A stretch of DNA of 63,940 bases, the filler included, from Rhizaria sp. SCN 62-66 (Eukaryota): assembly GCA_001724265.1 (NCBI GenBank). It is 5 parts of 5 records of this genome, joined end to end, with 100 filler letters (N's around TTAATTAATTAA, not from the genome) between each part and the next. Parts side by side here need not be neighbours in the genome. Positions count along the whole stretch, not along the records: positions 55,892 to 63,940 come from MEDY01000592.1; 4 more parts are not named here. The stretch is one strand, 5' to 3'. A program made the position numbers and the translations under genes. Within the stretch, counting starts at the first letter, position 1. Every line of letters begins with the position of its first letter. The notes below the pieces were generated by a model. The model was not told where the DNA came from. It searched no databases and was given only the letters and a program-made list of their open reading frames with translations. Positions 14,079-63,356 of this stretch are shown here, one piece after another.

Positions 14079-14152
14079 TGCGGATTCCGTGATTTGAACA
14101 CGGGACCTTACGATCTTCAGTCGGACGCGCTCCCAGTCTGTGCCAAATCCGC
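14079..14152 (-). tRNA. tRNA-Phe (GAA)
   Basis: Reverse complement GCGGATT TG GCAC AGACTGGGA GCGC G TCCGA CTGAAGA TCGTA AGGTC CCGTG TTCAAAT CACGG AATCCGC A folds as a cloverleaf. It is followed by TATATTTTT (Pol III terminator) and has no encoded CCA. Confidence 0.93.
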
Positions 14153-41500: not shown

Positions 41501-41908
41501 CGGGACAGTACTTACGCCAACTTCTGCAGCTCTTGCCATCTCCAACGGGGTTGCGTACATCGGCACTGAGGAGAGCGTTATCGTTGCTCTGAAACTCTCG
41601 TCATCGACTGGCGCCGTTGTTATTACAGTCAACCCTGTTCCGAGTCTCTCGACGGCCTGTCCCATCGCCTCACTCGCAGTTCATCCGTCAGGGCGCATTC
41701 TGACTGCGGCCTGCGCCGACTCTGGTGCGCTTCTGAACATCCGCGTCCTGCACAGCGAAGACCTGAGTCGCTACATTCTGCGCAGCGATCAAACTGTGGG
41801 CTGCATGGTACACGTGCCGGCTGAGCCCACGCGCGACTTCACAAATGCAGATCGGCTAGACTTACTTTCTGAGAGCGTTGACTCGTACCGCTACTTCACC
41901 TATGACGC
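29508..41908 (+). CDS. Giant secreted/surface Ser/Thr-rich beta-type protein (>4130 aa, 3' partial) with four in-frame TAG codons
   Basis: Signal peptide MCAFSRALRALLTLSTLIFVFILVLG. ORFs 29487..30986, 31248..36746 and 36795..41960 are one reading frame interrupted only by TAG at 30984, 31002, 31170 and 36744. Composition is uniform across the junctions. Confidence 0.8.
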
Positions 41909-42008
41909 NNNNNNNNNNNNNNNNNNNNNNNNNNNNNNNNNNNNNNNNNNNNTTAATTAATTAANNNNNNNNNNNNNNNNNNNNNNNNNNNNNNNNNNNN
42001 NNNNNNNN
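41909..42008. other. Artificial contig linker
   Basis: N-run with TTAATTAATTAA. Confidence 0.97.
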
Positions 42009-42359: not shown

Positions 42360-43188
42360 GTTACTAGATAGCCTATCGCAAATTCGACGAGAACCGTCCT
42401 TCTCCCCGAGACCTCACTGGGCTTGGGGGACGCCGCAACCCCGCCGAGTCCCGTCAATTTTCTGGGCAGATTTTCTACGAACCGGGCGTGCCAAAAATCG
42501 TAACACCACAGTCGCTGTGTGGACGGTACAATTTATTTGAACCGAGGGCATGTAAAGGGCGATATTGGTTCAGAAATTTGTGGGCTGTAACAATTTTTTG
42601 ATTTGTATCTGCTGGCTGGCGAGCGGCCGCTATTATTTGTTGTTTAGTGACTTAAACTGGGGTGCTTCAGCCGTGCCCGTCGAGGAAGCAGTGGACATTC
42701 CGAGCCGCATGCTCCACGCCCGCCTCTGGACACCGCATTTGTCCGTCTGCCGCACTACAAAACACTCTTTATGTTGCAACGTGCTAACAACTCCCGCGCT
42801 GCACGATCTAAATCCCTTCGGTGTTGGATTGTCGCTACATACTTGTCTTCAAACTTCTCTCCGTGCCCCCCCTACATTCGCACTCGCTACTGCCCTTTCT
42901 GCTCTCTTTCTACTCCCACATTCTCTATCTGTGTCATTCACACTCCATAACGTACACTGCGCCACGCTTTTTACTGTACATTACCGTAGGCTTTTGCCCC
43001 GTTTCCGGACAGGACTCCTTTATCTTCCCGAAGTACTCCAGCCCCCCCGAAGCGGCAACTCCACCCCCCTTTGCTCTTCCGGCTCTCTCGGCCTCGCTCC
43101 CGCTTTTGCGCGCTTTCCTCCACCTGCGTCAACCGACTGCCCGTGCTTTTCACCGCGCGCTCCCCCCGCCGCAGTTCCCCGCCGCCGC

Positions 43189-46100
43189 ATGCAAGGCATG
43201 TACTCGCTCGCGGCGCTCTCCGCGGAGAACGCGCGTCTCCACGAAGCGCTCCGGGCCCTCACCGCCGCCAACGAGTCTCTCTTGCAGCAGACCCAGCAGC
43301 AGCAGCAGCCGCAGCAGGGCCAGCAGCAGCTCCCCGCGCTCGACGCCCCTGCGCCGGGCCTGCTTGCTCTCACACACGCCAAACCCGCCTCCGCCTCCGC
43401 CTCCGCCTCGGCTCTCGAGCCCGACGCCGAAACTGCGACGACTCCTGCGTCTGCTGCCACTGCCGCTGCCAGCATCTCCGGGCTCATTGGCGCCGCGGCA
43501 TCGGCCGCCGGCGGCAGCAGCGGCAGTGGCGCGCGCCGCCTGCGACCCCCGTCCCTCACTACGACCGCCGCGGCAGACGGCGGCGGCGCCGGCGGCGGCG
43601 CCGCTGTGCCCGTCGTCGTCGTCGCGACCGCGGCGGCCGCGGACGCGGACCTCGTCGACGTCGCCGACGTTGATGACGCCTTCCCGGTCGCCGGCGCTGT
43701 TACTGGCGCCGGCGCCGGCACCGGCGCTGGCGTCCACGCCAACGTCAGCCCTCGGAACGCGCTCAGTCCCGCTCCCAGCAGCTCTGCCAGCACTAGAACT
43801 AGCGGCAGCGCGGCCGCGAGCGAGCCGCACATCAGCATCCCGCTCTACATCACCTTCCTGCGCGCGCTACTGCCGCCCGGGGACGCGGCCGCGCTGCCCT
43901 CGGCCACCGCCGTCGCCGCCGCCGTCGCCGCTGCCGTCGCCGCCGCAGCTAACAGCAACAGCAGTAACAACAGTCACAACACGTACGGTAGCAATGCCAG
44001 TGCCAGTGGCTACGGCTACGGCGCCCACCCGAACGGGCCCATCGCCGCCCCTGCGTCGACGACTGGGACCAAGACGTCGAGCACGTTCTCCTACCCCGTC
44101 GTCGCAGCCGCCAGCAGTAGTCGCAGCCAGACAAGCAGTAGCCACTCAAGCAGCAGTGCGAGCGGCAACTGCGGCTTGACTTCCGCGGCCGACGGTCTGC
44201 CCTCGACGGGCAGCGCCAGAGGCGTGTTCTCCTACCCCCAGGCGCCCTCGCCCACCACGCACAAGAGCACTAGCGCTGGCATTAACAACGGCGCTAGTTC
44301 GTCGAGCACGAGCCCGCGCACCCTCGCTCTGGCGGCGCAGCCCGCGGCGGCGGCCGAGACGGGCTACCTGTTCCCCCGCCTGCCCGACACGCTGCCGCAG
44401 CCCGTGGCCGTGCTATGGATGGCGCTCACGGCCACGCTCGCCTCCTCGGCGCTGCCGCACAAGACCGCCGCGGCCTCCGCGGCCTCCACCGCGGCCTCAG
44501 CCGCGGCCAACAGCTCCAGCGCCAACGCCGCCGCCACGGCTTCGGCCTCGGCGGCCGCGGCTGCGGCGGCTGCGGCGGCCGCGGTTGCCGCCGCCAACGC
44601 GACCAAGGGCGGCGCGAGCGCTGACACCGAGGCTGACGCGACGGGCGGCAACACCAGCGGCGACGACGACGATAACGGTGAAGACGACGACGACGTCCAC
44701 GGCAGTCTCAAGACGGCCAAGAGCTCCTCGTCGACCAGCATCGCCTTCGACTACAAGCGCAGCGGCAGCGGCAGCGTTTCGCGGGGCAGCGCGCACGGCA
44801 GTAGGCACGGCAGCGCAGTCAAGCTGGGGCTGAGCGTGAGCAGCGCCCGGCGCGCGCGCGTGCTCAAGTACGACCACGACGACGCCGAGGACGTTTTCCT
44901 GTCACTGCTGTCGCGCCCGCGCGCGCTCAAGCGCAAGATGAAGCACAACAAACAGCTGCTCGCGGCCTTCGAGCACGGCCCACAGTCATCCTCGAGCTCA
45001 CAGTCGCAGGAGCAGGGCGGTCCACAGTCAGTCGCGGGTGCGGAGGCGATGTTCAGCACTCTGCCTGCGCTGTCGTCGCTCGCCAACATGCTGTCGTCAC
45101 TCTCTAACAACAACAACAACAACAAAAATAACAATACCAACTCGGTGAATGCGACTGCGGTGGCAGCGCTGACCACGGTCGTCGCTGCCGCCACTGCGAG
45201 CGCCGTGAAGGCCGCCAACAACAGCAACGGCAACGGCAACACCGCCAATGCGGGCGACAGCGTGAACATCCACGCTAAGTACCTGCAGTTGCTCAACACG
45301 CACCTCAGCACAAACCTCGGACTATCGTCGTCGTTTTTCCCACACGTCCTGCCGTCCCTCACCGGCAACGCGACTGCGAGCATCGGCAATGCCAGCGCTC
45401 CCACCAGCCCCACGTCCGCCTCCGCGGCGATCGCGACCGCTACTGCGAGTGCGGGCGCCGCCAACACGGCCGCGCTGTCCCCGTTCCCGCTCTCTCTGGC
45501 GCGCGCGCTGCCGCCTATCGCGCTGCCCCCGGCCCTGGCGCGCTCGTTGGGCATCCCGCAGTACATCGTGCCCCTCTCCGCGCTCGCGCAGCACCAGAGC
45601 GGCGGCGTCGGCTGCCCCGTCGGCGGCGGCGCTGCTGGTGCCTCTGCCACTGCGATGACGCCGTCGCAGATATGCGCGGCGCGCATGGCGGCCGCAGGCG
45701 TGCACATGCCTGTCCCGCTGGCCATGCCCGTCGCTGCGCCCGTGCCGCGCGTGCTGTTGCCGTCGTTCCCGCTGCTCGTCGGCTCCGTCGTCGAGTCGCT
45801 CCTCATCCTCGTAACCGCCGCCTCCGCCCCCGTCTCCACCAATAGTAGCAGCTCCCACAGCAGCAGTGACAGCACTCAGCTTGTGTGTGCGAATGCAAGT
45901 GCTGCTTCTTCTTCTTCCGCGGGCTCTGACAGCGGCCGCAATGTTGCGGCGACCGTCGCGGCCGTCACCCACACGTGTCGCATCCTGGCGTCGCTGCCCC
46001 TGACCCTCATCCAGTCTCAGTCGCAGTCGGCTGGCGCTCGCGCTGCTGCTGCCAGCTCTACCACTGCTTCTGCTGTTGCCTCTAGCAGCAGCAGCACCGA

Positions 46101-49100
46101 CGGCGGCGTCGTGTTCAACAACGTGCACGGCCAAACGAGCGCGGGCGCCACGGCCAGCTCCGCCACGGGCGCCGCCGTCTCGGCTGCGGCGCGTACGCGC
46201 GCATACTTCCTGCCACCGCGCCCGCGCCCGTCGCGCGCCTCCGTCACTGCCTACCACCGCTCGCTGCTGGCGGCGCTCGCGGGCGTGCTGCGCCGCACGC
46301 TCGGCGGACAGGTCTACATCACGGGCGATCTGGCGCTCAAGACGCGCCGCGCGGCCGCCGTGGCCGACGACGGCGCCGAGGGCAGCGGCAGCGACAGCGA
46401 CGTGCAGGCCATGCCCGTGCCCGGCGCCGTCGCCGCGCACGGTGCCGCCAAGGCGCGCGTTGGTGCCAGGGCCCGCGCGCGCGCCCGCGTCCGCAGCGCC
46501 GCCGCCGCGGCCGCCGCGAATGCAGCGGCCAGTGCGAGTGGCAGCTTGAGTCCTGTTTCCAAGGTTGACGTCGCTACGTTCAACAGCAGCCTCGTCGCGG
46601 AGGACAGCAACGCTACTGAGGACGAGGACAACGGCCGTGCCGGCGGCGACTGCGGCGGTGACGACGACAGCGACGACATCGCCGAGCAGCACTACTACAA
46701 GCACGACTGCAACGGCAACAATCCTCGCTCCAGCTCTGGCTCTAGCTTTGGTGTCTGCTCCGCATCGTCTTCCCAGTCAGCCTCTGCCTCCGCTTCCGCC
46801 TATGTGTCCCCGTACCCGCTGTCGGCGATCCCGCCCGTGCCGCTGGAGCTGTCCCTGTTCCTGGCCCGTGGCGCCGAGGGCGTGTGGATGCGCCGCACCG
46901 CGGGTGTGCTCTGCTCCGAGGTCTGGTTTGCGGGCGAGTCGCGTGCGCGCATGACCGTGGGCGCCTACGCGCGCACGCGGGCTGCCGTCGCCGACGCCGT
47001 CATGTGGCTCACCGAGCAGGAGAAGGGCCGCCACGAGCGCACGTTGAGTCACCGCGGCTTCGGTTCGCGTCTCAGCGATGACGACGACGAGGCTGATGAC
47101 GCTGATAGAGATGCTGAGAACAAGGCAAACGACGACGAAGATGGCGATGAGGCCAAGGCCTTGTCTGCGACGACTGCTGCCGCCGCTGCTGCCATCGCCA
47201 GCGCCCTCACCAACGACTCCAACGCTCTCACGACTGTCGCTAACAACAACAACAACAATAGTGCTGAGATCGACGTGGTTGTGACCACCCCCGGCGGCCT
47301 CGCCAGCGCCAGCGGCCCCAGTGCCGACGCCGTTGCCAACGGCGCCGCCGCGGGCGCGAACACGAGCGCCGCTGCGAACGCGGCTTCGGGGGGCAACAGT
47401 AACAGCAACGCGCCTGCGCCGTCGTCGGTGTCGCTGGCACCGTCGTCCATCTCGCTTCTGCCGACGCCACCGCCTCTGTCGGTGCTGCGGTCCGCACACG
47501 CCGCGGCGCACGCCACGCGCATCTCGCGTTTCAGCGCGCTGCTGACGCTGCCGCTGCCGCCGCGCGCGCGCGCCGCCGCCGCTGCCATGGCCGCCGCGAT
47601 TCCAGCCGAGGATGAGTGGCAGAGCTTCCTCCGCTCCGCCGTCTGCCCGCTCTCCTCGGCATCCTCCACTGCGTCCTCTGCAGCGCCTCCCAGTCAGGAG
47701 AGCGGTGAAGGCGCCGGCGAGCTGGGACTGCGGACCCCTTACGGGCGCGTCGGCATCAGCTCGCCCGCGGGCGCGCTGGCCGTGGCGCGCTGTCTGCTCT
47801 CCCAGTCGGGCATCATGGATCCGCGCGGCTACACGCTCAACGCCCTGCACTCGGCCGCGACCGCCGACGCCGCCGCGGCCGCGACCGCCGCCGCCGCCGC
47901 CGCCGCGGTGGCCGCGGCCGACGCCGAGTCCGAGGCTGCGCTCGCCGAGGCCGTCGTCGGCCACGGCGGCTGCTGCTCGCCCACGACCGCGAGCGCCATG
48001 GCGACCGGCGCGGCCGAGGCCGAGGCGGCGGCTGCGGCTGCGGCGGAGGCTGCTGAGGCCGCGGCGATGGGCATCACCCCCGACGCGGCCTGGTCGGCCC
48101 TCGCCAACGCGCTCGTGCCGCCCTGCTTGCGCCGCTACGGCAATGCCGCCGCGAACGCTACCGCTGCTGGTGCCGCCGCTACTGCCGCCGCTGCTGCTGA
48201 GGCCGTGGAGTGCGACGGCCACGGCTGCGGCTGCGCGGCCGACCGCCGCCGCCGCCGCCAGCGCGCCCGCCTCTCGCAGCCTCGCAGTGCCGACTCGCAC
48301 ACGGGCGCCGAGTCCGACTCGTCCGGTCTGACCGCCGAGGCGGCGGCCGCGGTGGAGGCAGACGCGCTGAGCCTGCTGCCGCCGCGCAGCCAATGGCCGC
48401 GGCTGGGCGAGCTGCTCGGCGTGCCCTGGCTGCCCGCGGTGCTCACGGCCACCGTCGCCGCGCGCACCGCCGCCGCGCTCGCCGCCGCCACGGCCGCCAC
48501 AACCACTGCCGTGACGGCGGTGGTTGAGAGCGCCGGCGCTGCCGCGATCGCTGCGACCGCTGAAACTGCTGAGGCCGCGGCCGCGGACAGCGCTACCGCG
48601 GTCGTGGCCGCCGCCGACGCCAGCACGCTCGGCCACGGCCACAGCTGCAGCCGCAGGCGCCGCGGCGCGCGCGTGGGCCCGCTCGGCGTGGGGGCGTTCG
48701 AGTCGGTCTGCGCGTCGCTGCTGGCGTCGCTGCAGCCGGCACTGACGACTCCGCCGCCCGTGCCGTCGCCCGCGTACCACAACATGATCATCACGCTGCC
48801 GCCGCTGCCCGCGCCCTCGAGCCTCCCGCAGCCGCAGCCGCACGCCAACGCGAACTCACAGTCGCAGTCGAACTTCGCGAGTGCGACCAGTGGCAGCTCT
48901 ACCGTGACCGCGCCCGCTGGCAGCCTCGCTTCCCCTACGTCGTCGACGGCACCGCTGCGGTCGAGCGTGTTCCCCAGCTCTGCCACGCCCAGTCTGTGCG
49001 CCATCGGCGCCGTGTCGCGCCAGCACCTGCCCGAGACGCGCCTCAACCTGCGCGCGTCGTCGCTCAGCTCGCTGAGCGGCACGGCGCTGTTTGAGGCCGC

Positions 49101-52100
49101 TGACGGCGGGATCGGCCGCTCGCACCTGCTCAAGCAGGCGTACGCGCTCGCCGTGCTATGGCTGCGCCGCTGGGGGCTGCTGTGCGGCGGCGGCGAGGCC
49201 GAGGCCGAAGCCGCGTGGGCCGCCAGTATGCACGCCGAGGTGCTTGAGGCGCACCCGCTGCTGCTGCTCTCGGCCGCGCTCAGCTTCACGTCCCCGCACG
49301 CCGCGCACGATGCCTCGAACAGCATCTACAACAGCGCTGCGGCGACGCTGCCCGGGCTCTGCGCGGTGTTGGCGGGCGCGACGGATGCCTCGGCCGCCGC
49401 GCTCGCGGCCGCTGTGGGCGTGGGCGCCGGCAAGAGCTCTCATAACCACGGCCGCGCTGGCGTTATGGCGAGCGACGAGAGCAAGGCCGACGGTTACACC
49501 GCCGCCGAGGCCGAGACCGAGGCGGACACCAAGGCGGAGACCGAGTCTGGATCGGGCTCCGACGACGGCGAGGCGCAGGTGTTCGTCAAAACGCGCCGTT
49601 CGCAAGCCGTCGTGATCCCCGGCGCCGGCGCGGCCTCCGCCCAGGCCAGCGCGGCCGCGGCCGCGACGCCCATGTCGGCCAGCGACGCCGTCGCCCCGAC
49701 CACCGCGGCCGACAGCGTCTCCAGCAGCGGCGTTAAGGCGACGCGCGACTCGGCTGTGTTCCCGTTCCACTCCAGCAGCACGGGCGCGCCCGCGAGCGGC
49801 GACAGCGTTCCCGGCGCGTTGAGCCCCTACCCCGCCAGCGACGGCGGCGCCTCCACGGGCACGGTCCTCGCCTCGCCGCTCACGCCGCAAGCGCCGGTCG
49901 CAAGCAACGGCGGTGGCGCGCTCTCGGCGGCGGCGGCGGGCGCGGGGGGCTCCAGTGCGAGCGCGTACGGCTACCGGCCCGCGCACAGTCCCTTCGCCGC
50001 TTCTCTCTATAACAGCAACAACCACAGCAGCAGCGCCGCAGCGCACCCCCAGGGCGGAAGCCACGGCCCAGGCGCCCAGCAGCAGTCCTCCGCGGCCGCC
50101 GCGCAGTCGGGCGTGCCGAGCCTTGACCTGGACTCGCTGCCGCCGATTCCGGCCCCATTCGCGCCACTCGCGCCGTCGGCCTTTGCGGCCTTCGCGGGCC
50201 CCACGGGCACCAGCGCCTCGGTTACCGTGGCCACCGCCGCCGCCGCCGCCGCCGCGACCGCGGGCTCGCCCGCCGGCGTCACACTGCCCACTGGCGTCCC
50301 CACGTCGTTGGTCCGCACGCTTCTGCTCTACATCTTCAACACGGCCGCGCCGCCGCCGTCGCCGCTGCACGCGCTGCTGGCGCTCATCACGACGCTCGCC
50401 ACCACCGACTGGCGCGCCGTCGCGCTCACAGTCGCCGGCCCCATCGAGCGCGCGCCCTGGGAGCGCGCGTGCCGGCTCGTCCCGCTGCCGCCCGCGCTTG
50501 CGCCCTTCGCCACCGCGGCCATCGCCGCGCCCGCGCCCTCCGGCAGCTCCAGTATCACTGGCGGCAGCAGCAGCAGTGGCACCAGCAGCAGCAGCGCGAC
50601 TGCGGGCCCGGGCAGCTCTCGCACCACCGCTCCCAGCGTCGCTGTTTCCGCGGCGAACAACAACAACAACACTGTGCCCGCCGCCGCTGCCGCCGCGAGC
50701 GCGAGTGCGGCACCGGTGGCGCCCCCCGCGGCGCCGCTGATTACGCGGACGCTGCTGGCCCCCTTCGCGCTGGGCCCCGGCTCGGGCGGCGCGACTGCGG
50801 CCCCTGCGCACGCGCTCGTGTCGGCCGCGGCGACCGCGGCGGCCGCGGGCGTGCTGGCCGTCACCTCGCACTGCCACGGCGAGCGCGAGAAGGCGCGGCT
50901 GCTGCGCGGCCGCGGGCGCGTCCTGAAGCGCCGGGCCGCGAAGCAGCAGCAGCAGCAACAGCAACAGCAGCTGAAGCTGAAGCAGAAGCAGGGAGACGAC
51001 TCTGACTCGGCGTCCGCGTCTGCGACTGTGAGGGCCCGCAGCGACGCGGACGAGGAGGAGGCCAAGACCGGCGGCGACGGCGAGAGTGACAATAGTGAGA
51101 GCGAGGACGCGTGCTTCGACGCAGAGGCAGACTCCTGGCTCCGGATCTGGCTCCACGTGCCCGCCTGCGCGCACGCCTGGACGCCGCAGCAGGAGTCCCC
51201 CGCTGGCCGCCATAGTAACGAGGCGGGCGACGCGAAGCTTGTGTGCGGGTGGCCCGCGCCGCAGCCGCCGCAGCTGCTTTCTCAGGAGGAGTATCTCACT
51301 TTCATCACCACTCCGTACAGCGTTGCCCAGCAGCAGCAACAGCAGCAGGCTGCTGCAGACGCAGCCAACTCTGCGGCTGACGCTGCTGCACCTAGCTCTC
51401 CCGCGCCGAGTGGCACGCATGACGCGCTCCTTAGCGTGTCGGCGGCCAAGCTGGGCTTTCGCCAGTCCGGCATGGCTGCGACCGCGGCGACGACCTTGTC
51501 TGCCGCCGCTGTCACCGGCTTCGACGTCCTGCGCGCCGCGAGCTCCTTCTCGAACTCCAGTGGCACTGGCGCTGGCTCTGGCTTAGGCTCTGCCTCGGCG
51601 AGTGCCGGTGCATCGACCCCTCAGCAGCCCCAGCACCATTCCCAGCAGCAGCAGCCGCAGCAGCAGTCGTCGTCGTCGTCGTCGTGCCCGCTTGCGCCGG
51701 CGATGATCGCCGCCGCCTCGGTGATTGCATCGTCCCCGGCATCCTCCATGGTCATGGTCGACCCCCTGGACGGCAACAACAACCAGGCCCTTGCGCTCAC
51801 CCCGGCGACCGTGCGCGCGCTCATCTCCGTCGCGCGCCACTGCATGCACAGCGTCGCGCACGCCGCGGCACAGACCTTCGCCACCGTCACGCCCGCCGCC
51901 TCCGCGCCCAGCTCGTCCTCGTCCTCGTCCTCGTCCTCTGCTGCGGCTGTGGGCCTCGCGGGCCACAGCGCGAGCGGACTCGGCCCGAACCCCCTGTCGC
52001 CCGGCTCGCCCGGCGCGGCCGGTGGCAGCGCGTACAACAGCAAGGCGCGGACGCAGACGCCGACCTCGCAGTCGCAGCGCATGCACGCGCGCACGCACTC

Positions 52101-55100
52101 CGTCTCGCAGTCCTCCTCGTCCTCATCTTCGTCGTCATCCTCGCGGTCGCTGGCGCTGGCGCTGGGGTTGAACACCAGCTCGCTCTCGTTGAGCATCCTC
52201 GACCGCGCTCTGGCGGCCACCGCGCCGCTGTCCAGCTCCGCGGGCGCGCACGCCGGCGCCGCCTACAGCGCCGGTCAGGGCGCCGGGGCCGACGGCGGGT
52301 CGCTGTCCCCGCGCCCCCACCACGGCGCGCAGCAGCAGCAGCTGACTCTGACCGGCAACGGCAGCGGCGAGCCCGCATCCCCCGGCCCCGTTTCGCAGTC
52401 CCAGCAGCAACAGCAGCAACAATCGCAGTCGCGTCGCTGGCGCCGCGGGGCGACCGTTGTCTCGATCCTGCGCCGCTGCGGCGCGCGCCCCCCCGCCCGC
52501 GCCTTCCCTGCGCCCTCGCCCGCGCTCGCGCTCGCGTCCACGCTGCCCCACGCCTCCGCCAACAGCAGCAGTAGCAGCGGCGGCGCGGCCGCGGCCTCGG
52601 CCTCCGCCGCCGCCGCGGCCGCCGCGGCCGCCGCGGCCGCCATGGTCGCCGCGGCGTCGACCGGCGTGACGGCGTGCCCGATCCCGCCCATGCCGAACGA
52701 CTGCGGCGCCTTCGCGCCCTCGAGCATCGCGCTCTTCGCCTCGGCCAGCGCGTCCGTCGCTGCGCTCGTCAGCCGCGGCAGCAGCGCCGCGCAGGGCGGC
52801 AGCAGCACTAGCGGCAGTGGCGCCTCGAGCGCCGGCAGCGCGGGCGCCAGCGCCAGCGCGTCGTACGCGGCTGCGTCCGCGACTGGCGGTTCCGCCGCCG
52901 GGTCCGGCGCGCCGCACTCGACGCCCGCGGCCGCTGCGACCGCTGCTGCGGCCGCCGCGACCGCCGCCGCGGCCGCCGCGACCGCGTCAAATGCGGCTGC
53001 CGACGACGAGCACAGCGCCACACACAGCACGGCCACGGCCGCCGCCGCCGCCGCCTCGGCCGCCGCCGCCGCCGCTGCCGCGGCCGCAGCGGCCGCGCAC
53101 CAGCAGCAGGCTTTCGTGCACCAGCAGCAGCTCTCGGGCGCCTGGGAGGCCGCGCACCTGCTCTTCTTCGCGCTGTTCCCGCCGCTGTCCTCACCGCTGA
53201 CGGGCGCCATCACGGCCGCGACGCCCGTGGCCGCGGCCGCCGCCGCCGCCGTCGTGGGCGCGCGCGCTACCCGCGCCGCGACGACCGCGGCCGCCGCGTC
53301 CGCCGCGTTGCACCACAATCTGCTCGCGGCCTCGGTCAACACGGCCGCCGCGGCGACTCTGGCTGCGCTGGCGCCGCCGCGCGGGCTGTCTGCGCACGCC
53401 GCCGCGCTCGCCGCGGCCCGCGCGCCGCCGCCGATGCTGCCGTTGGCGCCCGTGACCGTGCCGCGCCGGCACCGCATGTTCCTCGACGCGTACCGCGACC
53501 TGTCGCTGACGTTCGCAGCCGCGCACGCGCCGCTGTCGACGATAATCTACACGCCCAGCACCGCGCAGCAACAGAGTGCACAGTCGCAGATGCAGTCGCA
53601 GAGTGCGAGTGCGAACAGCGGCGTCAGCGTGACCGTGGTCGGCGAGGAGCAGACCGAGGCGATGTCGCTCTCGTCTGTTATCACCAACGTCGGCACCGAT
53701 GCCTCTGCCGCTGGCGGCGCTGCTGCTGCCGCTGGCGGCGCTGACGCCGGAGTGGCTGCTGCTCGCCGCCGCCCGCCTACGGTCACCATCGCCGGCAGCA
53801 GCGGCACGCTGACTGTCGGCTCAGGATCCATCGGCAGCAGCAGCGGCACTGCGCTGACGGCGGGTATCTACGGCGGCGGCGCCGGCTCGGCTGCGATCCC
53901 GCTCACGGTAACGCTGCCCACACCATCCTACACGGCGGCGGCGCTCGCGGCGGCCGCGGCCGCGCTGTCCGCTGTCGCCGAGGCCGCCGAGTCCAGCGCC
54001 AAAAGCAAGGCCGTGAGCAGTAACGTCGAGCACGTGTCGGACGCGGCGCTCGCGCTGGCGTCGGCCGCAGCGTCGCTGCCGCTGACGGCGTCCATCACGA
54101 TCCCCGTCCCGCCCACGCTGCTGCCGCCGCACGTCGCCAACTCGCTCGCTCACAGCCACGGCCACGGCCACGGCCACGGCCACGGTTACGGTCAGGGGAA
54201 CGCTGCCCACAGCAGCAGTGGGTCGGCGGCGACGCAGGGCCAGGGCCAGAGCCAGACCACTGGCAGCGCCGCACCGCACTCGCACTCTGGCGATACGCTC
54301 ACCCTTCCCCTGAGCGGCCCCAGCGCTGGCGCCGGCGCCGGTGCAGGCGCGAGCGCGAGCGCGAGCGCGAGCAAGACGGCCGCGAGCGTGTCGCTGGGCA
54401 GTCTGTTCAAGCCCTACCGGTCCTCGTCGGTGTCGCCCTCCGCGCAGCTCACGCTCGACGCCTGCTTCCCCTACGCATACGCGCCCTCGGTCACCGCGGG
54501 CGCCGCCGCTGCCGCCGCCGCCATGGGCGCCTCGTCGACCTCCGGCGGCCGCTTCGGCTCCGTCAACGGCTCCAACTCCTCCGCCACTGGTGCCGCCGCC
54601 GCCTCGACCTGCGCTGGCGCGGGCGGTCTGGGCGGGGGCGTGTACGTGCCACCGCGCGTCTTCTACACGCTCATGCCGCTGCCCGCCTCAGTCACCAGCC
54701 CCGGCGCCAGTGCCGCCACCGGCTCTGCGGCCACCGCGACCGCGGCCGCTGCGGCTGCAGCGGGCGTGTCCTCGAGCGGTGGCAACGCGCAGGCCTCGGC
54801 CTTGCCCCCCGCCGCCGCGCTGGCCGCTGCGGCCGCGGCCGCGAGCGCGACCGTGCCAGTTTCGACGCAGCTGCTTTCGTCGGCCTTCTTGACGCACACG
54901 GGGCCGCTGGTGCTCGCGGCCCTGGCCTCGGTCACCGACTCCACGGACTCGGCCGCCGCGGCCGCCGCCGCCGCGGCCGCCAACGCCGCCGCCTCCGCTG
55001 CTGCGGACGCTGACAGCGACGCCGCCTCTGCGGTGACCGAGAGTGTCACTGCGGCTGCGGCAGCTGCTGACGGCGCGCCGTCGCTGCTGCAGCGGCACCA

Positions 55101-55791
55101 GACTGCCGCGGGCGTGGGCTACGGCTCGTACCCGATCGCGTTCGGCAACACCGACTGCGAGCTGGCGGCGCCTTCGTCCATGGCCGCCGCCTTCACCGGG
55201 CCCTGGCACGCGCCGCTGCCCGCCGCGCTCGCCGCCATCGCGCCCCCCGCCGCCGCGGCGGCCGTGTCGCCGGCCCTCGCGCCGCTCGACGCGGCCGGCC
55301 CCGATACCGCGGCGCGCGCGGCGGCTGAGGTACCCAGCGCCATCGGCACCGCTTGCAACAGCGCCATCGCCGCGCTGTGCCTGCCGCCCGCGCCGGCCTT
55401 TGTCGCCGCCGCAGCCGCCGCAGCCGCCGCTGCCGCCGCAACCGCCGCGGCGACGACGCCCGCGCCCTCCTCGGCCGCCGCCGCTGCCGCCGCTGCCGCC
55501 GCTTCGGCCGCGGCGAGCGCCGGCCAGTCAGGCTCGACGGCCCTGGCTCTCGGCTCTGCCGCCGCGCCGGCCTCGGTCTCCGGCTCTGGCCCAGGCTCTG
55601 CCGCGGGCGCCGACGCCGACTCCGCGGCGACCGCGGACTACGCAGGCCCTTCGCTGCTGGACGACCGCTCCCTGGCGTCCCCCGCGGCGCACACCGGGGT
55701 CGTCTCTGCTGGCGCGGTCTCCACCGGCGCCGTCGCCGCCGCGGTCGCTGCCGCCGCTGCTGCCGCCTCCGCCGCCGCCGCGGCCGCCGCT
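43189..55791 (+). CDS. Giant low-complexity protein (>4200 aa, 3' partial) containing a dispersed, degenerate non-canonical poly(A) polymerase / PAP-OAS1 substrate-binding-type nucleotidyltransferase fold
   Basis: Collinear blocks: RPSRASVTAYHRSLL..GGQVYITGDLALKT (~46225-46344), PLELSLFL (~46840), TRLNLRASSLSSLSGTALFEAADGGIGRSHLLKQAYALAVLW (~49036-49161), GVPTSLVRTLLLYIFN..PLHALLALITTLATTDW..LTVAGPI (~50293-50445), MVDPLDGNNN (~51754). These resemble plant/protist NTP motifs QVFTFGSVPLKT, DIDL, HLFKRSIILIKAW, STYALETLVLYIF, FDW..SLWGPV and IDPLRENNNLG. Confidence 0.72.
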
Positions 55792-55891
55792 NNNNNNNNN
55801 NNNNNNNNNNNNNNNNNNNNNNNNNNNNNNNNNNNTTAATTAATTAANNNNNNNNNNNNNNNNNNNNNNNNNNNNNNNNNNNNNNNNNNNN
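55792..55891. other. Artificial contig linker
   Basis: N-run with TTAATTAATTAA. Confidence 0.97.
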
Positions 55892-56570: not shown

Positions 56571-59500
56571 ATGATTGTCTCGAAGAGCTCCAACTATGCA
56601 CTTCTCCTGACGTGTATTATTTTTGCTGCTCTGGGTATCACAGCTATCATCTATGCTGTATTTGTCTTTACTACATCAGAATCGCCAGGAGCAGTGAACC
56701 TGCAGAACAGCCTCAAACTGCCTAGCTCCGTTGTTCTCACCAAGATCCCACTTTTTTCGCGTGTGACAACGGGCACGGATGGTGACAGTACCGAATCAAC
56801 CTCTCCAGACATCGCGCCACCAGGCACGGGGTGGTCACCGGCGCAGGAGCGTGCTACTGTCGCCGCCTACACCGCAGACAGCGCTCTGGCCCGCGCCCGG
56901 GGGTTCTGGACCGCGCTGTCGGAGGAGGGCGGACCGCTGGACGCCACGCCGGGGCTATACCGGCCGCTAAGCTCGCGCTTTGTTCCCATGGCAGTGCCGC
57001 GCACTGTAACCGCGACCACTTCAGTGCGTGCATCAGCATCTGCTCAAGCCTCCACTGCAGGCTCAGGACCGAAAGCAGCTTCGGAGATCACGGCGTATGC
57101 TTCGTCGCAGCTGCTGACGATCGCGCGCGAGGCCCGCGCCCCGCTGCACTCTGCGCTGCCGTCTGGTCGCTTTTTTGACGCGCGCAACCGCGTGTCGCCG
57201 TTCGTCGCCGCCTACGGCCGCATGCTGCGCCGGCCCGTGTGCAAGTTCTGCTCTCCCCGCTCCCGTGGGCAAGGTCCCAGCTCTGCTAAGCGCGACAACG
57301 AGACGCCGTGGCAGTCTGTCTCGGGTGCACGGTATCCGTTGCAGGACTGTATGGATCCAATTGACCTTGTGTATACCTGGGTAAACGGGTCCGAGCCTGC
57401 GCAAGCACAGAAGCTGCAGGCGACGAGGGCGGCCGTTGAGAAGGCTGAGGCCGCGGCTGCGGCTGCGTCACAGGCTGCGGCCGATGATGCGGCCGACACC
57501 GCCGCTGCCAACGATGCCGAAAATGGTCGCAGTGTTATCAACGAAACTGATTCTTCACCTTTGCTTAGAACAGTTACAGACATCAAATTGACGACAAAGT
57601 CAGATATCAATGTCGGCGTTGGATCACTGCAAGCAACAGCTGAGAAGCAAACTAAGGTGATGACGAGAGTGCCTTTTAGTGCGTATGCCCCCCGCACGAA
57701 GTTTGGAGTTTTGGCTGCGAACGCGAATGCGGCTGATGGAGGAAGTCTAAACGACGCGGCTGTCGACCATCGCCGGTTTCGCACTCTTAATGAGCTTAAA
57801 TACTCTCTCCGCGCCACCCTTGCCAACGCGCCTTGGATTCGCCACGTGTTTATCGTAACTGGAGACCAGACTCCGTCGTGGGCTGAGCCGCGCGCTCTGA
57901 TGGCGAGCGTTGCTGGAGCGCACGCGAGCGTGAACGCAACGCTTGCATCGTTCCTTCCCGCGCTTAAAGCCGCGACTGATAATGGATCTAGTAAGACTCT
58001 GGCTGATGTTGATGCTGCATCTAACTTGGGTGACACACGGATTAATGGGATCACCCCTGGACTTACTCGACAAGACATTTTAAAGTATCTTGAAGCAGAG
58101 GATCATCTCGTCGACGGGTTTAACTCAAATCAGAAATTTACCATTGTTTCGCATTCGGAAATCTTTTTAACTCCAGGCTTATCAATGCCTATCTTTAACT
58201 CCAATGGCATTGAAACGGCCCTACACCGCATTCCAGGTTTGTCAGATACGTTTCTATACGCAAATGACGACGTGTTTATTGCAAAGTCTTCACCGCAGTC
58301 GTTTTTCCATGAAAATGCGTTTGGTCAAGCGATACGTTACGCGTCATATCCTCTTCAGACCTGCGCACCTGACTGTGCACTGACCATGGTTGGCGACGGT
58401 GTGTGTAATCCACAGTGCTACAGCGCTCTATGCCACTTCGATCTTGGTGATTGTGAGCGCAATTATATCACCGCTCCATCTGAAGCAGTTGCATACGCTG
58501 CGCTTTTGAGCTTTGCCACGACGTTTGCAACGGATAGTTTGATCTCAAGATCAATGACTTTTTTCCACAGTACTGATAGTCGATCTGTGAACAAACGCGG
58601 CAACGATGAGAGCACAGGTGATGGCTCATTTAGCAACATTTCGAGCGGCAAAGTTTTCAGCTCGTTCACCTCTCGTGTGTCGAGTTTTATTGACGAAAAT
58701 CGCCTCCGCGAGATCAGCAGTCAGGGAGTCTCTCGTCAGTCGAATCGTGTGTCGCGCGATGCTAAGTCTTCATCTGTCGGAACTCCATTTATTCTGTCTT
58801 TATTCGAGTCCACCGAAGCATACACGACTGCGGTCGCTGCAAACAGTGTGAGCGTCAGCCCTGTGCTCGCGACGCTTGCGCGCACGTTAAGTTCGATTGT
58901 TGCGAGGAACAATACGAGGTTCAACACTAGCACAAGCTCTAGTTCGACTGCTAGCGCAACCGACTCAGTGCCGGAGTCATGCGCGCCTGGATGTCCAGTC
59001 ACATGGCTTAACGACGGCGTCTGTGACAATGCGTGCGACACGGAGGCTTGCGAGTGGGATCGCGGCGACTGCGACGTGCGTTCCACAACTTTGTCAGCAG
59101 CCAACCAGCGCGCGCGCTACTACCGACTGCTCGCGAAGCAAGCGCGCGCACAGGCCGCGGTTGGCGGTGCAGCGGAATCTCTCCTCGCGCGTCTGACTGC
59201 CCCGCCTGAAGCCTTTGCACTGTCTGCTGCGGACCTTGATGCGGCGACTGCTGCGATTATGGCCGCACAACGGCGCCGCGAAAACGTCGACTTGCGCGAC
59301 CGGAGCTCTGGCATCGGCTCACGGTGCGTAAGTGCGCGCACGTGCACGAGCATTGCTCTGTCTCTTGCAAACACGACATTTTCCCCCGCTGCGCTTCCGT
59401 TGGAGATGACAGACGATGACGTCATTTCTTCAGCGGCGGACGAGGCTGCGATTGCTGCTGTCGCAGCAGCGCGCGAAAGCCAAGCATCAGCAACTTCGAA

Positions 59501-61007
59501 CGTCAAAAACAAACCACAGGTTGATTCTAAGCCATCTTAGTTCCTTGCGTCATTATTACCCAGTTCGGCATTAATAATCTATAACCGACACCTTACTTTC
59601 ACAACCCGCACCTGGCTTGCACAGTCATTCTGGCAGCGCCCTGTCGGCTTTCGCCATGAACACGATCACGGCTACATCTTACCCCCAGAAGATGAGACCA
59701 CTGTCGACGCTACCGCATCCGCTATCGAGGCGAGTGAACAGGAGACCCCCTCACAGTCTGAATCAGACTCCGAATCTAAACATGAGACTACCTCTCCGTT
59801 TACGTACGAGTCGTTGTTGTTGTCGTCTGATTTTGTGCCTTTGACATCGTCACGCGCGCGCATTGCTCGTGCGTCTGCTCCTGTGATGCAGCAAGCATGG
59901 AGTCGTCGTGTGCGCAGTGCCGGCCGCGCCTTACCGATTGCGCCTTTGTCTCAATTTCAAGAGGCGTACTCCGCCTATATTGCACAAAATATGATCAACT
60001 CACTAAAAGCAACAGGCTTTGCGATTACTTCACCGCCCCTCCACTCAACTACATCTACTAACAGGCACGTTGTCGCTCACATTCACGCATTGCTTCCTGA
60101 GGAGTTTCTTAAAACAGAGCAAACGCCGCTGCGACGCTTGTTGGACGCGCAATTCACCGCTCTTATTATCCCATTTCATTACACCGCGCGTCACGGCTCG
60201 CTCGCCACGCTTGCTGAGGCCATGTTTTCAGACTTTGATTGGGATTGCAGCGGTCAACTTGAGGGCGACGAAGTGCGAGCTTTCTTGCAAGCGCTCTCAG
60301 CGCCAGCTCCTGAGCTTCCGCGGGAGTATTCGGACTGGAAAGATGATAACCCACGTTTTCCGTTTGCCGCCCCGTTTGCGCTTGACCGCAGGAGCTTTGG
60401 TGACAATAACTTAAGTACCGAAGAGCCAAGGGGTGAGCAAACAAAGAACGTGACGGGGCGTGCTTATGTCACTGAGATGTTGCCTGATGTTGTTCCAGAT
60501 ATGAACTTAGGCGACGGAGACACAATGCGTGCGCGCTTCCTGGGTGCTGCTTCCACTGTGTACGCGGCTAATGGTGCCCCAGCGGCGTCTTTATGCGATG
60601 ACAGATGTGATGCACTGATGCGGACGCAGCCGTGGAGTATGCGTAAACTCGACAGCGACAGCGTTTTGAAAGCGATTGTTTCTATGACTCTTGATGAGTT
60701 TGTGTCGTGGGACACTGCACTTGCTTTGTTGCAGCAACAGCACCTTCGATGGCGCTCTATGTACCCAACGTACCGCGAACCGCAAGACTTTCGTTTTCAC
60801 CCTCTTGGGCGGAAGAGCTCTACACTTGACAAGTTTCGACATGAGCTGCGCGTAGTCGCAGCATTTTTCGCTAGGCCTGAGCGCAATACGTTGTTGTGCA
60901 TCAACGATGACATGAGTAACAGCGAGGATGAACTGCTGGAAGCCTTCGCGACAACGCTCGACTACCAACTGCCGGCCAAGACTATGCTTGAGGATGACAG
61001 TCTCTAA
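56571..61007 (+). CDS. GNPTAB: Stealth-family GlcNAc-1-phosphotransferase alpha/beta-like protein (~1478 aa) with one in-frame TAG (59538-59540)
   Basis: N-terminal TM; CR1 PIDLVYTWVNGS; CR2 NELKYSLR..APWIRHVFIVT and FNSNGIETALHRIPGLSDTFLYANDD; two LNR/Notch repeats. After the TAG, in the same frame: CR3-like RHVVAHIH, EF-hand DWDCSGQLEGDE and CR4 LLCINDD. Stop TAA. Confidence 0.85.
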
Positions 61008-61883
61008 AACAGGATTTCATGTGATCATCACATGTTCTTCAACTCATCCTTCATGTTAGGATTTGATGTCTATTACATTGTACATGTACTTTTATTTGGT
61101 CTGTATATATTTTTTTGCTCTTAATTCTTAACTTTCAAGTACTACGTAATAAACTTCTGAGTCGCGTCCTCAACTGTTATCTGAATGACTGAAACCATTA
61201 TGTGTTTTCTTTGCCAGGACATAGTGACCATCCAGAGACAATCAGCGACCGGATGAGACTGGGTTAGCCGGTGGCTCTTGAGGTAGCCAATAAGATAGAG
61301 CTTGCGCGCTAAAAGAGAGATCATTGTCGCGGACTCTGCATGCCGACACATTATCAACTCATGGCTGCTGTACAGAACGGTTGGATCTCGTCATAGATCG
61401 CGGCCACGCCGTCGGGGTGCAGCGGCGAGCGCGACGACACCCAGGAGTCACAAAGTGTACTATTGCGGTTGGTGAACAACAATGTTTTAAACACACGCGT
61501 ACCAAGTAGAGATGTGCCTTGCTTGAACGAGAGATGTACAAGAGCGGGACCGTGTGTGCAGCCATCGCCGCTGAGCGACGAATTGCCGGCTTCGGAAGCG
61601 AGACAGGAGGGGAACGAAGGTAATGGTGTTTATTTGCAATGGATCCGACATAGGTGGTACTTACATGGTCAGAACCAAAGGAGCACTCACCAAACGACGA
61701 GACAAAATGCTCAGGCAATACGTTTCGCTCATCATACGGAACGACTGAGGTCCTTCACTTTGTGCTCAAAGCGATCCGACGTATCGGGAAGATTAACTTG
61801 CACAAAAGGGAATACGTAAACTATTATATATATTGTGCGCTATATATCAGGTGACTAAGGTGTGATATTTCCGAGAAATGTTA

Positions 61884-63356
61884 TCAATTCCCCGTTTGAC
61901 AAAGATCATCTAGACTGACGCCGTCAATCTTGTCTTGCCTCCAGACAATCTCCATCTTGTTTTTGAACATTATGTGCTCGTTCTACATCAGCCGTTGCTT
62001 TCGTTTCAGTTCCGCAGCAGTGAAGGGCTTGATGTGGAGCGAACCGTCAGTCCACAGCCCCAGCGACTCTAGCGACGGCAGCGCGCCGTAGAGCCGCGCC
62101 TCGGTCAGCGCCGTGCTCTCGAGCCCGTTCGTGCCAGGCCGGTACGCCATCGAGTCCAGGCTCGCAGTGACCCAGTGGAACGCGCCAAGCTGCGGCAACG
62201 GCGCATAACGCAAAATCGTCGCATTTACTTTGCTGTATCCATCAGCTGAATAGGGCGAGACCGCGTTCACGCGCAAGACCATGTCAAAGTATGCTTTGCG
62301 GTTGTTGCTTGCAGAGGGCGTGACAGTTTGCTTCTTGTCGGGGCGCGAGTGGTCTTCTTGGGCATATAGCCCAACCTTAGGGAGCAAACGGCGGAATCCG
62401 CTGTGGCGATAGGCGCGGTGATAAATGACGTTATCCTCGCCACCCCAGCCCCAGAAGTTGTTTGCGAAACCGTCGATAGCCCTGTACATCGCCACTGACA
62501 TCGCGAATACGCCACCAAAATGGCTTCCGCTGGTGCCATACTAGTCAACAGTTTTGGGGGCGGAGCACATGTGCACAGGCAGACCATCAACGCCGAGGTC
62601 ATAGGTGTTGTTGAGACTGAGCGGATACAGATCAGCATCATGTGCGACCACGTAGTCGTAGCCCCAGGACTCCGCCACACGAACGCCGAGATTCAACAAG
62701 TAGCCCTTGTTAAACGCGACGTCCTGGTCGTGCATTTCGATCACCAGCATCGCGTAGTCACGGCCAGGAACCTTACGAACAGCGCGCAGATGCTTGTCAA
62801 GCTTCTCGACCAGCAGGAGGATTTGTACTGAGCGCTCACGGAGTGTGTTGAAAGCATGCTCACGAAACGGGACAACAAGGAGCATCTTACCACCCACATT
62901 CGTAGCATTCTCAGTACCCTTGTGTGCTTTGATAACGTCGGGGTGGAACGGGGACAGTTCCGATGCCCATTCAGGCAGATCGAGGTCGGCGAGAGTGAGC
63001 TTGCGGTCGGCGAAGGGCGCTGTCTTAAAGATGCGCGTTGCGTTAGTGAGGTACTCACGCTGCGTGGCGGTGATGTTGGCAGTCATAGAAGGCGTTAGGC
63101 GGACAGCGCTCTCGAGAAGCGTGGCAGTGAAGGGAAATATGGCTTTGGCGGGATAGGCTGAGGGCGCGGTAAGGTTGTAGTTGAGCTACAGTAAAGCAAA
63201 GTTTGCGCTCTTGACGACAAAGAAGATCGTCAGAAGAACCACGGATGAAAAGATGCTCCCTATGATGAATGAGGAAGGTCGTTTGTAGCAACATCCTTGC
63301 TGGTTCGCGTCCGCGAAGTAGAAGGCATCTGTGAAAAGTACGTCCTTCGAGGACAT
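61884..63356 (-). CDS. GT7 beta-1,4-galactosyltransferase-family type II membrane protein (~490 aa) with three in-frame TAG codons (63186, 62541, 61983)
   Basis: ATG 63356 (MSSKDVLF..), signal anchor FIIGSIFSSVVLLTIFFVV, then VVPFRE, FNKGYLLNLG, HDADLYP, FGGV, GFANNFWGWGGED, all in one frame broken only by TAG. First non-TAG stop is TGA at 61884-61886. Confidence 0.88.

Follow-up and report, generated by a model that had tools for sequence, protein, structure and literature searches.

In-frame TAG codons in a GT7 glycosyltransferase gene and a probable reassignment of UAG to glutamate in a rhizarian genome

The GT7 gene and its surroundings

The stretch of DNA analysed here (the window, 63,940 nucleotides with filler) is made of five contigs joined across runs of N, and belongs to a eukaryotic assembly (G000) of 34.9 Mb in 714 contigs in which spliceosomal introns are present. 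Within four long frames of the window, 10 in-frame TAGs were counted. One of the five contigs, C592, carries a gene of the GT7 glycosyltransferase type whose main features are as follows:

61884..63356, minus strand: GT7 (beta-1,4-galactosyltransferase-like) gene, a single frame of 490 codons plus TGA
63213..63269, minus strand: predicted type II signal anchor, residues 30-48 (Kyte-Doolittle 19-residue maximum of 2.64 at residue 30; presumed anchor role)
63186..63188, minus strand: in-frame TAG codon 57, past the anchor, putative Glu; R and T in paralogues
62628..62642, minus strand: HDADL (residues 239-243), the DxD metal-binding motif, which aligns to FSDVDL of B4GALT1
62541..62543, minus strand: in-frame TAG codon 272, in the catalytic domain, putative Glu; K in B4GALT1, N or K in paralogues
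62433..62519, minus strand: FGGV (280-283) to WGWGGED (302-308), the C-terminal catalytic half, from the Pfam and B4GALT1 alignments
61983..61985, minus strand: in-frame TAG codon 458, with TGA 32 codons later, putative Glu; both C531 paralogues align weakly past this TAG

When the TAGs are read through, the frame matches Glyco_transf_7C (PF02709) including WGWGGED with 49 bits (cut-off 23), and Glyco_transf_7N (PF13733) slightly below its cut-off of 27, with 24.7 bits and an E of 2e-5, the DxD motif being present and aligned. The alignment with B4GALT1 (E 3e-19) crosses TAG 272, which lies opposite the K of MDKFG in the three B4GALT1 alignments listed, and the H262-FGG loop is 17 residues long in either protein if the TAG is counted. 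An initial annotation of this DNA had placed TAG 62541 between HDADL and FGGV/WGWGGED, and TAG 63186 beyond the signal anchor. Both placements are borne out, with TAG 272 falling after the DxD residues and ahead of the two downstream motifs, and with the most hydrophobic 19-residue window beginning ahead of TAG 57. The frame likewise confirms that reading TAG 61983 adds 32 codons before TGA, and the Pfam and B4GALT1 matches of the read-through frame agree with the view that the motifs are intact and the gene is not pseudogene-like. The protein shares DxD, FGGV, WGWGGED and the N-terminal hydrophobic anchor with the beta-1,4-galactosyltransferases of the two Pfam families, but it belongs to a lineage-specific paralogue family with a C-terminal extension of its own (genome matches on C531, C78, and C596), and galactosyl or GalNAc transfer is putative.

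Selection on either side of TAG 272 was assessed against the two C531 paralogues. The two values of dN/dS were 0.16 and 0.22 upstream of it (codons 58-271) and 0.19 and 0.29 downstream (codons 273-457), which shows long-term constraint on both halves and says nothing on the recent status of the gene. The last 32 codons gave 0.59-0.95 from only 25-27 poorly aligned codons and are uninformative. Among the sequencing runs listed, at least half of the GT7 words were present in 4 of 11 (three studies; bioreactor or wastewater where labelled), and one of these may itself be the source. In run X4, three base differences were seen over 62548-63190, of which two are silent and one replaces E by Q, and TAG 61983 is covered without difference by contigs of X4 (61912-62207) and X5 (61840-62074); RNA run X6 was left out here because it reaches this TAG only at a contig end. 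Poly(A) RNA run X9 gave a gap-free contig over 63125-63338 with three differing letters, the letters themselves being unlisted. One X4 contig that differs near 62541 has loose ends and is probably from a paralogue. Judged from its sequence, the gene would encode a complete Golgi-type glycosyltransferase of 490 residues in which codons 57, 272, and 458 would stand for Glu.

The paralogues show no conservation at any of the three TAG columns (R/T, N/K, and G/A at codon 458), and GT7 therefore supports readthrough while being silent on the residue. This is also why the gene is not the cleanest single test of recoding that it had been taken for: it is one of a paralogue family without a conserved TAG column, and what decides the matter comes from elsewhere in the genome, namely the CUA tRNA, the TAGs of eRF1 and of the Thg1 active-site motif, and the lack of TAG at gene ends. 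The annotation was right that site 62541 does not identify the residue, since Pfam scores there were 50.8 bits for E, 50.7 for Q, 51.0 for K, and 51.1 for L (Y 52.6); of the two residues it gave for homologues, K is found in B4GALT1 and, next to N, in the paralogues, while L was not seen in these alignments.

Several other features lie near the gene or elsewhere in the window. A degraded GT7 fragment in another frame follows the GT7 gene (about 61300-61700, minus strand; tblastn E 3e-05), and C531 (L039) holds its intact GT7 paralogues as a tandem pair together with another fragment. Tail-to-tail with GT7 lies a GNPTAB-like gene with Stealth CR1/CR2 and two LNR repeats (56571-61007, plus strand); as a Stealth-like start also adjoins the GT7 paralogue on C596 (L041), the pair may have been duplicated jointly. 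A CIMR-repeat gene is also present in the genome (L139). The frame at 29508-41960 (plus strand) has 4,150 Ser/Thr-rich codons, a signal-peptide-like start, and four TAGs, three of them clustered at 30984-31172, and runs off the contig end. Two Ala-rich low-complexity frames span 18904-27315 (minus strand; 2,803 codons, two TAGs near its end) and 42709-55839 (plus strand; 4,376 codons). None of these three frames has a Pfam match. A tRNA-Phe(GAA) gene lies at 14079-14152 (minus strand), where the second contig begins.

TAG usage across the genome

The best named matches of the VCP/CDC48 protein are rhizarians, and in a FastTree phylogeny of 117 VCP sequences the organism clades with Guttulinopsis vulgaris, the 10-taxon clade having a support of 0.999 and the 11-taxon clade one of 0.998. 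IQ-TREE, run on 30 of the 117 sequences, gave the 11-taxon clade a support of 100; rerooting shifted the IQ-TREE values by one node, and this clade had 100 either way. The organism is a cercozoan, probably in or near Sainouroidea, and the placement goes no finer than that vicinity because it comes from a single gene and Guttulinopsis has a long branch. A tree of eRF1 left the organism unplaced. In a metagenome scan with eRF1, one identical contig was found (L150, possibly from the same source), the other matches being distant eukaryotes.

Codon usage was studied in 920,826 bases (2.6% of the genome), comprising 40 unselected 10-kb stretches and further loci found by family and tRNA searches, part of which had been chosen because a TAG was present. 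Stop-type codons that came after 60 coding-like codons (n=150) were collected and the coding potential downstream was scored with a periodic Markov model, which was used in place of an initial hexamer filter that let in many shadow frames. Coding-like DNA followed TAG in 29/31 cases, whereas non-coding DNA followed TAA in 64/67 and TGA in 46/52 (110/119 together). Of the two TAGs not followed by coding-like DNA, one belongs to a TAG-TAA pair and the other apparently lies within an intron. In the unselected 40 stretches alone (400 kb), a hand count found 12 of 14 TAGs to be internal, against 49 TAA/TGA. The reading of the GT7 TAGs as sense codons agrees with this genome-wide contrast, and their identity is more than chance, since each of the three in-frame stops of GT7 is a TAG and the bias extends across the genome. 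On the sampled sequence, then, TAG lies inside coding regions and is absent from gene ends, and UAG is very probably a sense codon in this genome. The sole case of TAG at a gene end is the gene at L129:2664-2669 (plus strand), which apparently ends in TAG-TAA.

UAG is rare, with a frequency of about one per four genes. Exonic UAGs were found in conserved coding regions of eRF1, Thg1, UBE2J, kinases, papain, and GT7. Among 142 kinase matches, 9 had TAG only, 1 had TAA only, and 4 had a mixture; of the 10 TAGs in the kinase alignments, 5 are exonic, 4 are intron acceptors, and 1 is unclear. No exonic TAG was found in 43 DEAD-box matches, where the single TAG is an intron acceptor, in 22 AAA matches, or in dynein heavy chains over ten 10-kb stretches (28,097 codons of long frames), where TAG occurred only as acceptors or in introns. 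Conserved housekeeping genes, as sampled by these three families, avoid UAG. Other A/T-ending codons are rare as well, ATA and AGA occurring 128 and 126 times in 162,133 codons, and the genome is GC-rich. A search with a polyubiquitin-junction pattern gave no match, and an all-against-all comparison was dominated by antisense frames, which were ignored.

The residue at UAG, its tRNA and eRF1

The features outside GT7 that bear on the residue and on decoding are:

L139:1447-1449, plus strand (contig C25): TAG in Thg1, SD*FSF, at the E77 position
L042:2464-2466, minus strand (contig C63): TAG in eRF1, GK*KKV, upstream of the GGQ domain; the gene ends in TAA
59538..59540 of the window, plus strand: TAG codon 990 in the Stealth/LNR (GNPTAB-like) gene; CAG in a related strain (T>C, runs X4, X5, and X9)
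L038:1489-1561, minus strand (contig C84): tRNA gene with a CUA anticodon and a tRNA-Glu body, 73 bases, found by pattern search and fold

In Thg1, the TAG column of 150 homologues has E in 147 and K in 2, with 1 uncovered. These homologues came from an exhaustive search, as a word-based search gave none at 1e-15, and the query carried E, with at most a slight bias on ranking. Pfam scores at this site are 88.4 bits for E, 84.6 for Q, 84.3 for K, and 82.2 for L, and E77 is described as one of three conserved active-site carboxylates (PMC3701042), the TAG standing in place of the third. The genome search for eRF1 gave one eRF1 match and one Pelota-like gene. The eRF1 TAG column has E in 105, D in 10, and V in 1 of 116 proteins, and among 79 metagenome loci E in 76, with 2 uncovered and 1 gap; a true stop here would remove the GGQ domain. 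The V belongs to the nearest relative, P0004 (84%), and the site is therefore relaxed in this clade. In these two genes TAG stands at conserved Glu columns. Summed by hand over 11 sites, Pfam bits were 614.2 for E, 610.1 for K, 608.5 for Q, and 591.5 for L, and without Thg1 525.8, 525.8, 523.9, and 509.3, respectively. The sums therefore exclude Leu, and the preference for Glu over Gln or Lys stands on the two columns and the tRNA.

Other sites are less uniform. At the UBE2J TAG, yeast Ubc6 has D and human J2 has S. The TAG/CAG (Gln) change at 59538 is the sole strain difference seen at any TAG, several TAGs lie inside poly-Gln runs (L070, L079, and L142), a Sel1-like TAG is opposite Q in the nearest paralogue, and the GT7 paralogue at L041 has a TAG opposite L or V. 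A divergent papain-like protease (L233:3113-4900, plus strand, C364) has two exonic TAGs, one of them at the W of WG, where W gives the best Pfam score. Since CAG, TTG, and TGG are one base from TAG, these exceptions fit missense changes at tolerant sites, and they also fit mixed decoding.

The genome-wide tRNA search used a pattern with a CUA anticodon between the D-loop GG and the B box, which intron-bearing or divergent suppressors would escape. It returned one match, against 13 for a reversed-pattern control, and that match is the gene at L038, which has a normal cloverleaf, a short variable loop, a T-run behind it, and nuclear gene neighbours. It was compared with 26 other distinct tRNAs recovered from the genome (a set without tRNA-Trp, His, Pro, Gly, Val, and Thr) and groups with tRNA-Glu(CUC), with identities over 73 bases of 47 to Glu(CUC), 39 to Glu(UUC), 38 to Asp, 29 and 23 to Gln, and 29 to Leu. 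A cruder pairwise alignment was less decisive (Glu 0.64, and Met 0.63 with many gaps). The body is of the Glu type in the acceptor stem, D arm, and T arm, and CUC becomes CUA by one base change, while the anticodon stem is weak, with one G-C pair and one G-U. A first search with a tRNA-Glu pattern had given no match; one CUA gene now stands against 8 tRNA-Glu(CUC) matches.

The D arm differs from those of the two tRNA-Glu types of the host and equals a common bacterial tRNA-Glu motif, its 20 bases occurring at 120 or more prokaryotic loci, 118 with Glu anticodons (CTC or TTC). A bacterial origin is not supported, as outside these selected 20 bases the best bacterial tRNA-Glu matches at 37/53 and that of the host at 36/53; a search for the same D and T arms in bacteria or viruses gave no exact match. 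A pyrrolysine tRNA was rejected. In tRNA-Pyl the D loop has no GG and TPsiC is absent; the 'Pyl' label given by ARAGORN comes from the anticodon alone, and the tRNA found here has GG, TTC, and the Glu body.

In eRF1, three residues beside the stop-recognition motifs are altered (human numbering): T32S and G57S, where T and G are found in 116/116 proteins, and T58K, where T is found in 115/116, the exception being P0004, which has the same change. The YxCxxxF region reads SMYMCDNQF, and E55, L69, S70, and Y125 are kept. T32 is reported to contact the third base of UAG and is altered in Iotanema (PMC5304391), and T32S is reported to have had almost no effect on human eRF1 in vitro (PMC3632111). 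A published test of G57S or T58K was not found in the literature searched, including passages of PMC4381064. The three substitutions probably weaken the recognition of UAG.

A plausible course of events can be proposed. Most likely, a duplicated tRNA-Glu(CUC) gene would have acquired a CUA anticodon, and the tRNA, presumably expressed and charged by glutamyl-tRNA synthetase, would pair with UAG and not with UAA. eRF1 would largely have stopped recognising UAG, the codon would have vanished from gene ends, and TAG codons may then have arisen by point mutation and persisted where Glu was right or tolerated. The residue inserted and the part played by the eRF1 changes are predictions from sequence.

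Alternative readings and comparison with known codes

UAG read as Glu, with UAA and UGA as stops, was given a probability of about 0.85. That the TAGs are instead true stops or artefacts (nonsense mutations in genes under decay, misassembly, very small introns, or editing) is very improbable. Many in-frame TAGs of six-frame translations are indeed intron acceptors (4/10 in kinases, and the DEAD-box and dynein cases), GTTGACTAG at 62549-62541 has GT-AG ends, and GT7 has paralogues, so that one copy could decay. However, decay would also bring TAA, TGA, and frameshifts, and TAG would still be seen where genes end. Neither eRF1 nor Thg1 can do without its downstream half, and an excision at the Thg1 site would take out the SDE motif; in GT7 it is the reading of TAG that gives the loop length of B4GALT1, TAG 61983 is unchanged in contigs of two other runs (X4 and X5), and a cognate CUA tRNA gene exists. 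A UAG = Leu code by common ancestry with the sainouroid rhizarian exLh is scarcely credible: the VCP tree does join the organism to Guttulinopsis, of the group of exLh (PMC5304391), and one GT7 paralogue has TAG opposite L, but Leu falls 22.7 bits under Glu across the 11 sites, the Thg1 and eRF1 columns contain no L, the CUA tRNA is short in its variable arm, unlike tRNA-Leu, and shares 29/73 bases with tRNA-Leu(CAG), and eRF1 keeps L69.

Amber anticodons can attract GlnRS or LysRS, and a sense UAG might insert Gln, Lys, or a mixture through mischarging of the CUA tRNA or near-cognate competition. I consider this unlikely. The TAG/CAG difference at 59538, the TAGs within poly-Gln runs, the AA in place of AC behind the anticodon of the suppressor, and the margin of at most 2 bits among E, Q, and K without Thg1 would all suit it. 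Against it, there is no Q among the 150 Thg1 homologues and neither Q nor K in the eRF1 column of 116, the tRNA body is of the Glu type in all three arms, and CAG becomes TAG by a transition, as would be expected at tolerant sites under any meaning of TAG; the amino acid is also altered by 11 of the 27 further strain differences listed for the Stealth/LNR gene. A reading that overlaps with the preferred one is that UAG means Glu yet still partly terminates, an ambiguous state that would explain its rarity, and this is possible but doubtful. In its favour are the ratio of internal TAGs to gene ends of about one to four (12 versus 49 in the unselected 400 kb), the lack of exonic TAG in the 43 DEAD-box and 22 AAA matches and the dynein frames, the single CUA gene beside 8 tRNA-Glu(CUC) matches, and the unchanged E55, Y125, L69, and S70 of eRF1. 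Yet, the TAG-TAA pair excepted, none of the 31 TAGs is a gene end; eRF1 and Thg1 both tolerate the codon, GT7 does so three times, and ATA and AGA are rare too, so that rarity can stem from mutation bias and recent origin.

Among the codes in which UAG is reassigned to Glu, that of the ciliate Oligohymenophorea sp. PL0344 also uses tRNA-Glu-derived CUA suppressors, but there UAA is Lys, UGA is the sole stop, and ten CUA tRNA genes are reported, against one found here (PMC10553269). Blastocrithidia (UAR = Glu, UGA = Trp) and peritrichs (UAR = Glu) share UAG = Glu, cognate tRNAs, and avoidance in highly expressed genes (PMC12153298 and PMC11687900). UAA is sense in both, whereas here S70 of eRF1 is intact and the genome is GC-rich, and in Blastocrithidia UAG makes up 1.38-1.66% of codons, far above this genome (PMC12153298). 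A UAR = Glu code was rejected for the present organism since 64 of 67 TAAs are followed by non-coding DNA. UAG = Glu is known, from these sources, only where UAA is also reassigned, to Glu (Blastocrithidia and peritrichs) or to Lys (PL0344) (PMC12153298 and PMC10553269).

Nuclear codes in which UAG alone changes are reported with Leu (exLh and some phyllopharyngean ciliates), with Gln (Iotanema and other ciliates), and, as listed there, with Ser (Scotinosphaera) (PMC5304391 and PMC11687900). In Iotanema spirale and the phyllopharyngeans a CUA tRNA likewise uncouples UAG from UAA, and Iotanema eRF1 carries T32G (PMC5304391 and PMC11687900); the residue there is Gln or Leu, the lineage is another one, and T32 has become Ser here. 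The exLh code (UAG = Leu, with UAA and UGA as stops) has 384 UAGs in 71 transcripts and goes with eRF1 L69A (PMC5304391). It is alike in that UAG alone is reassigned and UAA and UGA stay stops, in the same broad group (Sainouroidea or near, by a one-gene tree). It differs in its residue, in the rarity of UAG here, in that the cognate tRNA was only predicted there and its gene is identified here, and in eRF1, with L69A there and T32S/G57S/T58K here. The exLh code was rejected for this genome, as the TAG sites scored do not favour Leu and the CUA tRNA is not of the Leu type. Guttulinopsis and Rosculus apparently use the standard code. A code with UAG alone as Glu was not found in the literature searched, with most subscription journals outside its scope, and passages of the preprint 10.1101/2025.03.26.645542 contain nothing on genetic codes.

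UAG = Glu with UAA and UGA as stops is therefore a probable new variant of the nuclear code. UAG is so rare that it escapes routine checks; database protein P0181, from the Thg1 gene, for example, begins past the TAG and lacks the active site. eRF1 itself carries a UAG although conserved genes otherwise avoid it. A more speculative view, which I regard as improbable as a whole, holds that UAG alone has become Glu at an early, partly ambiguous stage in a GC-rich genome and that the UAG of eRF1 acts as a feedback sensor, whereby more eRF1 would cause more premature termination on its own mRNA and so set the balance between termination and the single suppressor tRNA.

If the Glu reading is true, it would add a new code table and the second non-standard nuclear code in Rhizaria. 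Codes that separate UAG from UAA are rare, and with tRNA and eRF1 from one genome, the loss of UAG with UAA and UGA retained becomes testable. The rarity of UAG in GC-rich DNA contrasts with the AT-driven route put forward for Blastocrithidia and may reflect codon capture at an early stage. As the organism is a relative of the UAG = Leu lineage, the finding points to a clade prone to the release of UAG, and if the early-stage reading were true, one cercozoan clade would hold three meanings of UAG: stop, Leu, and Glu.
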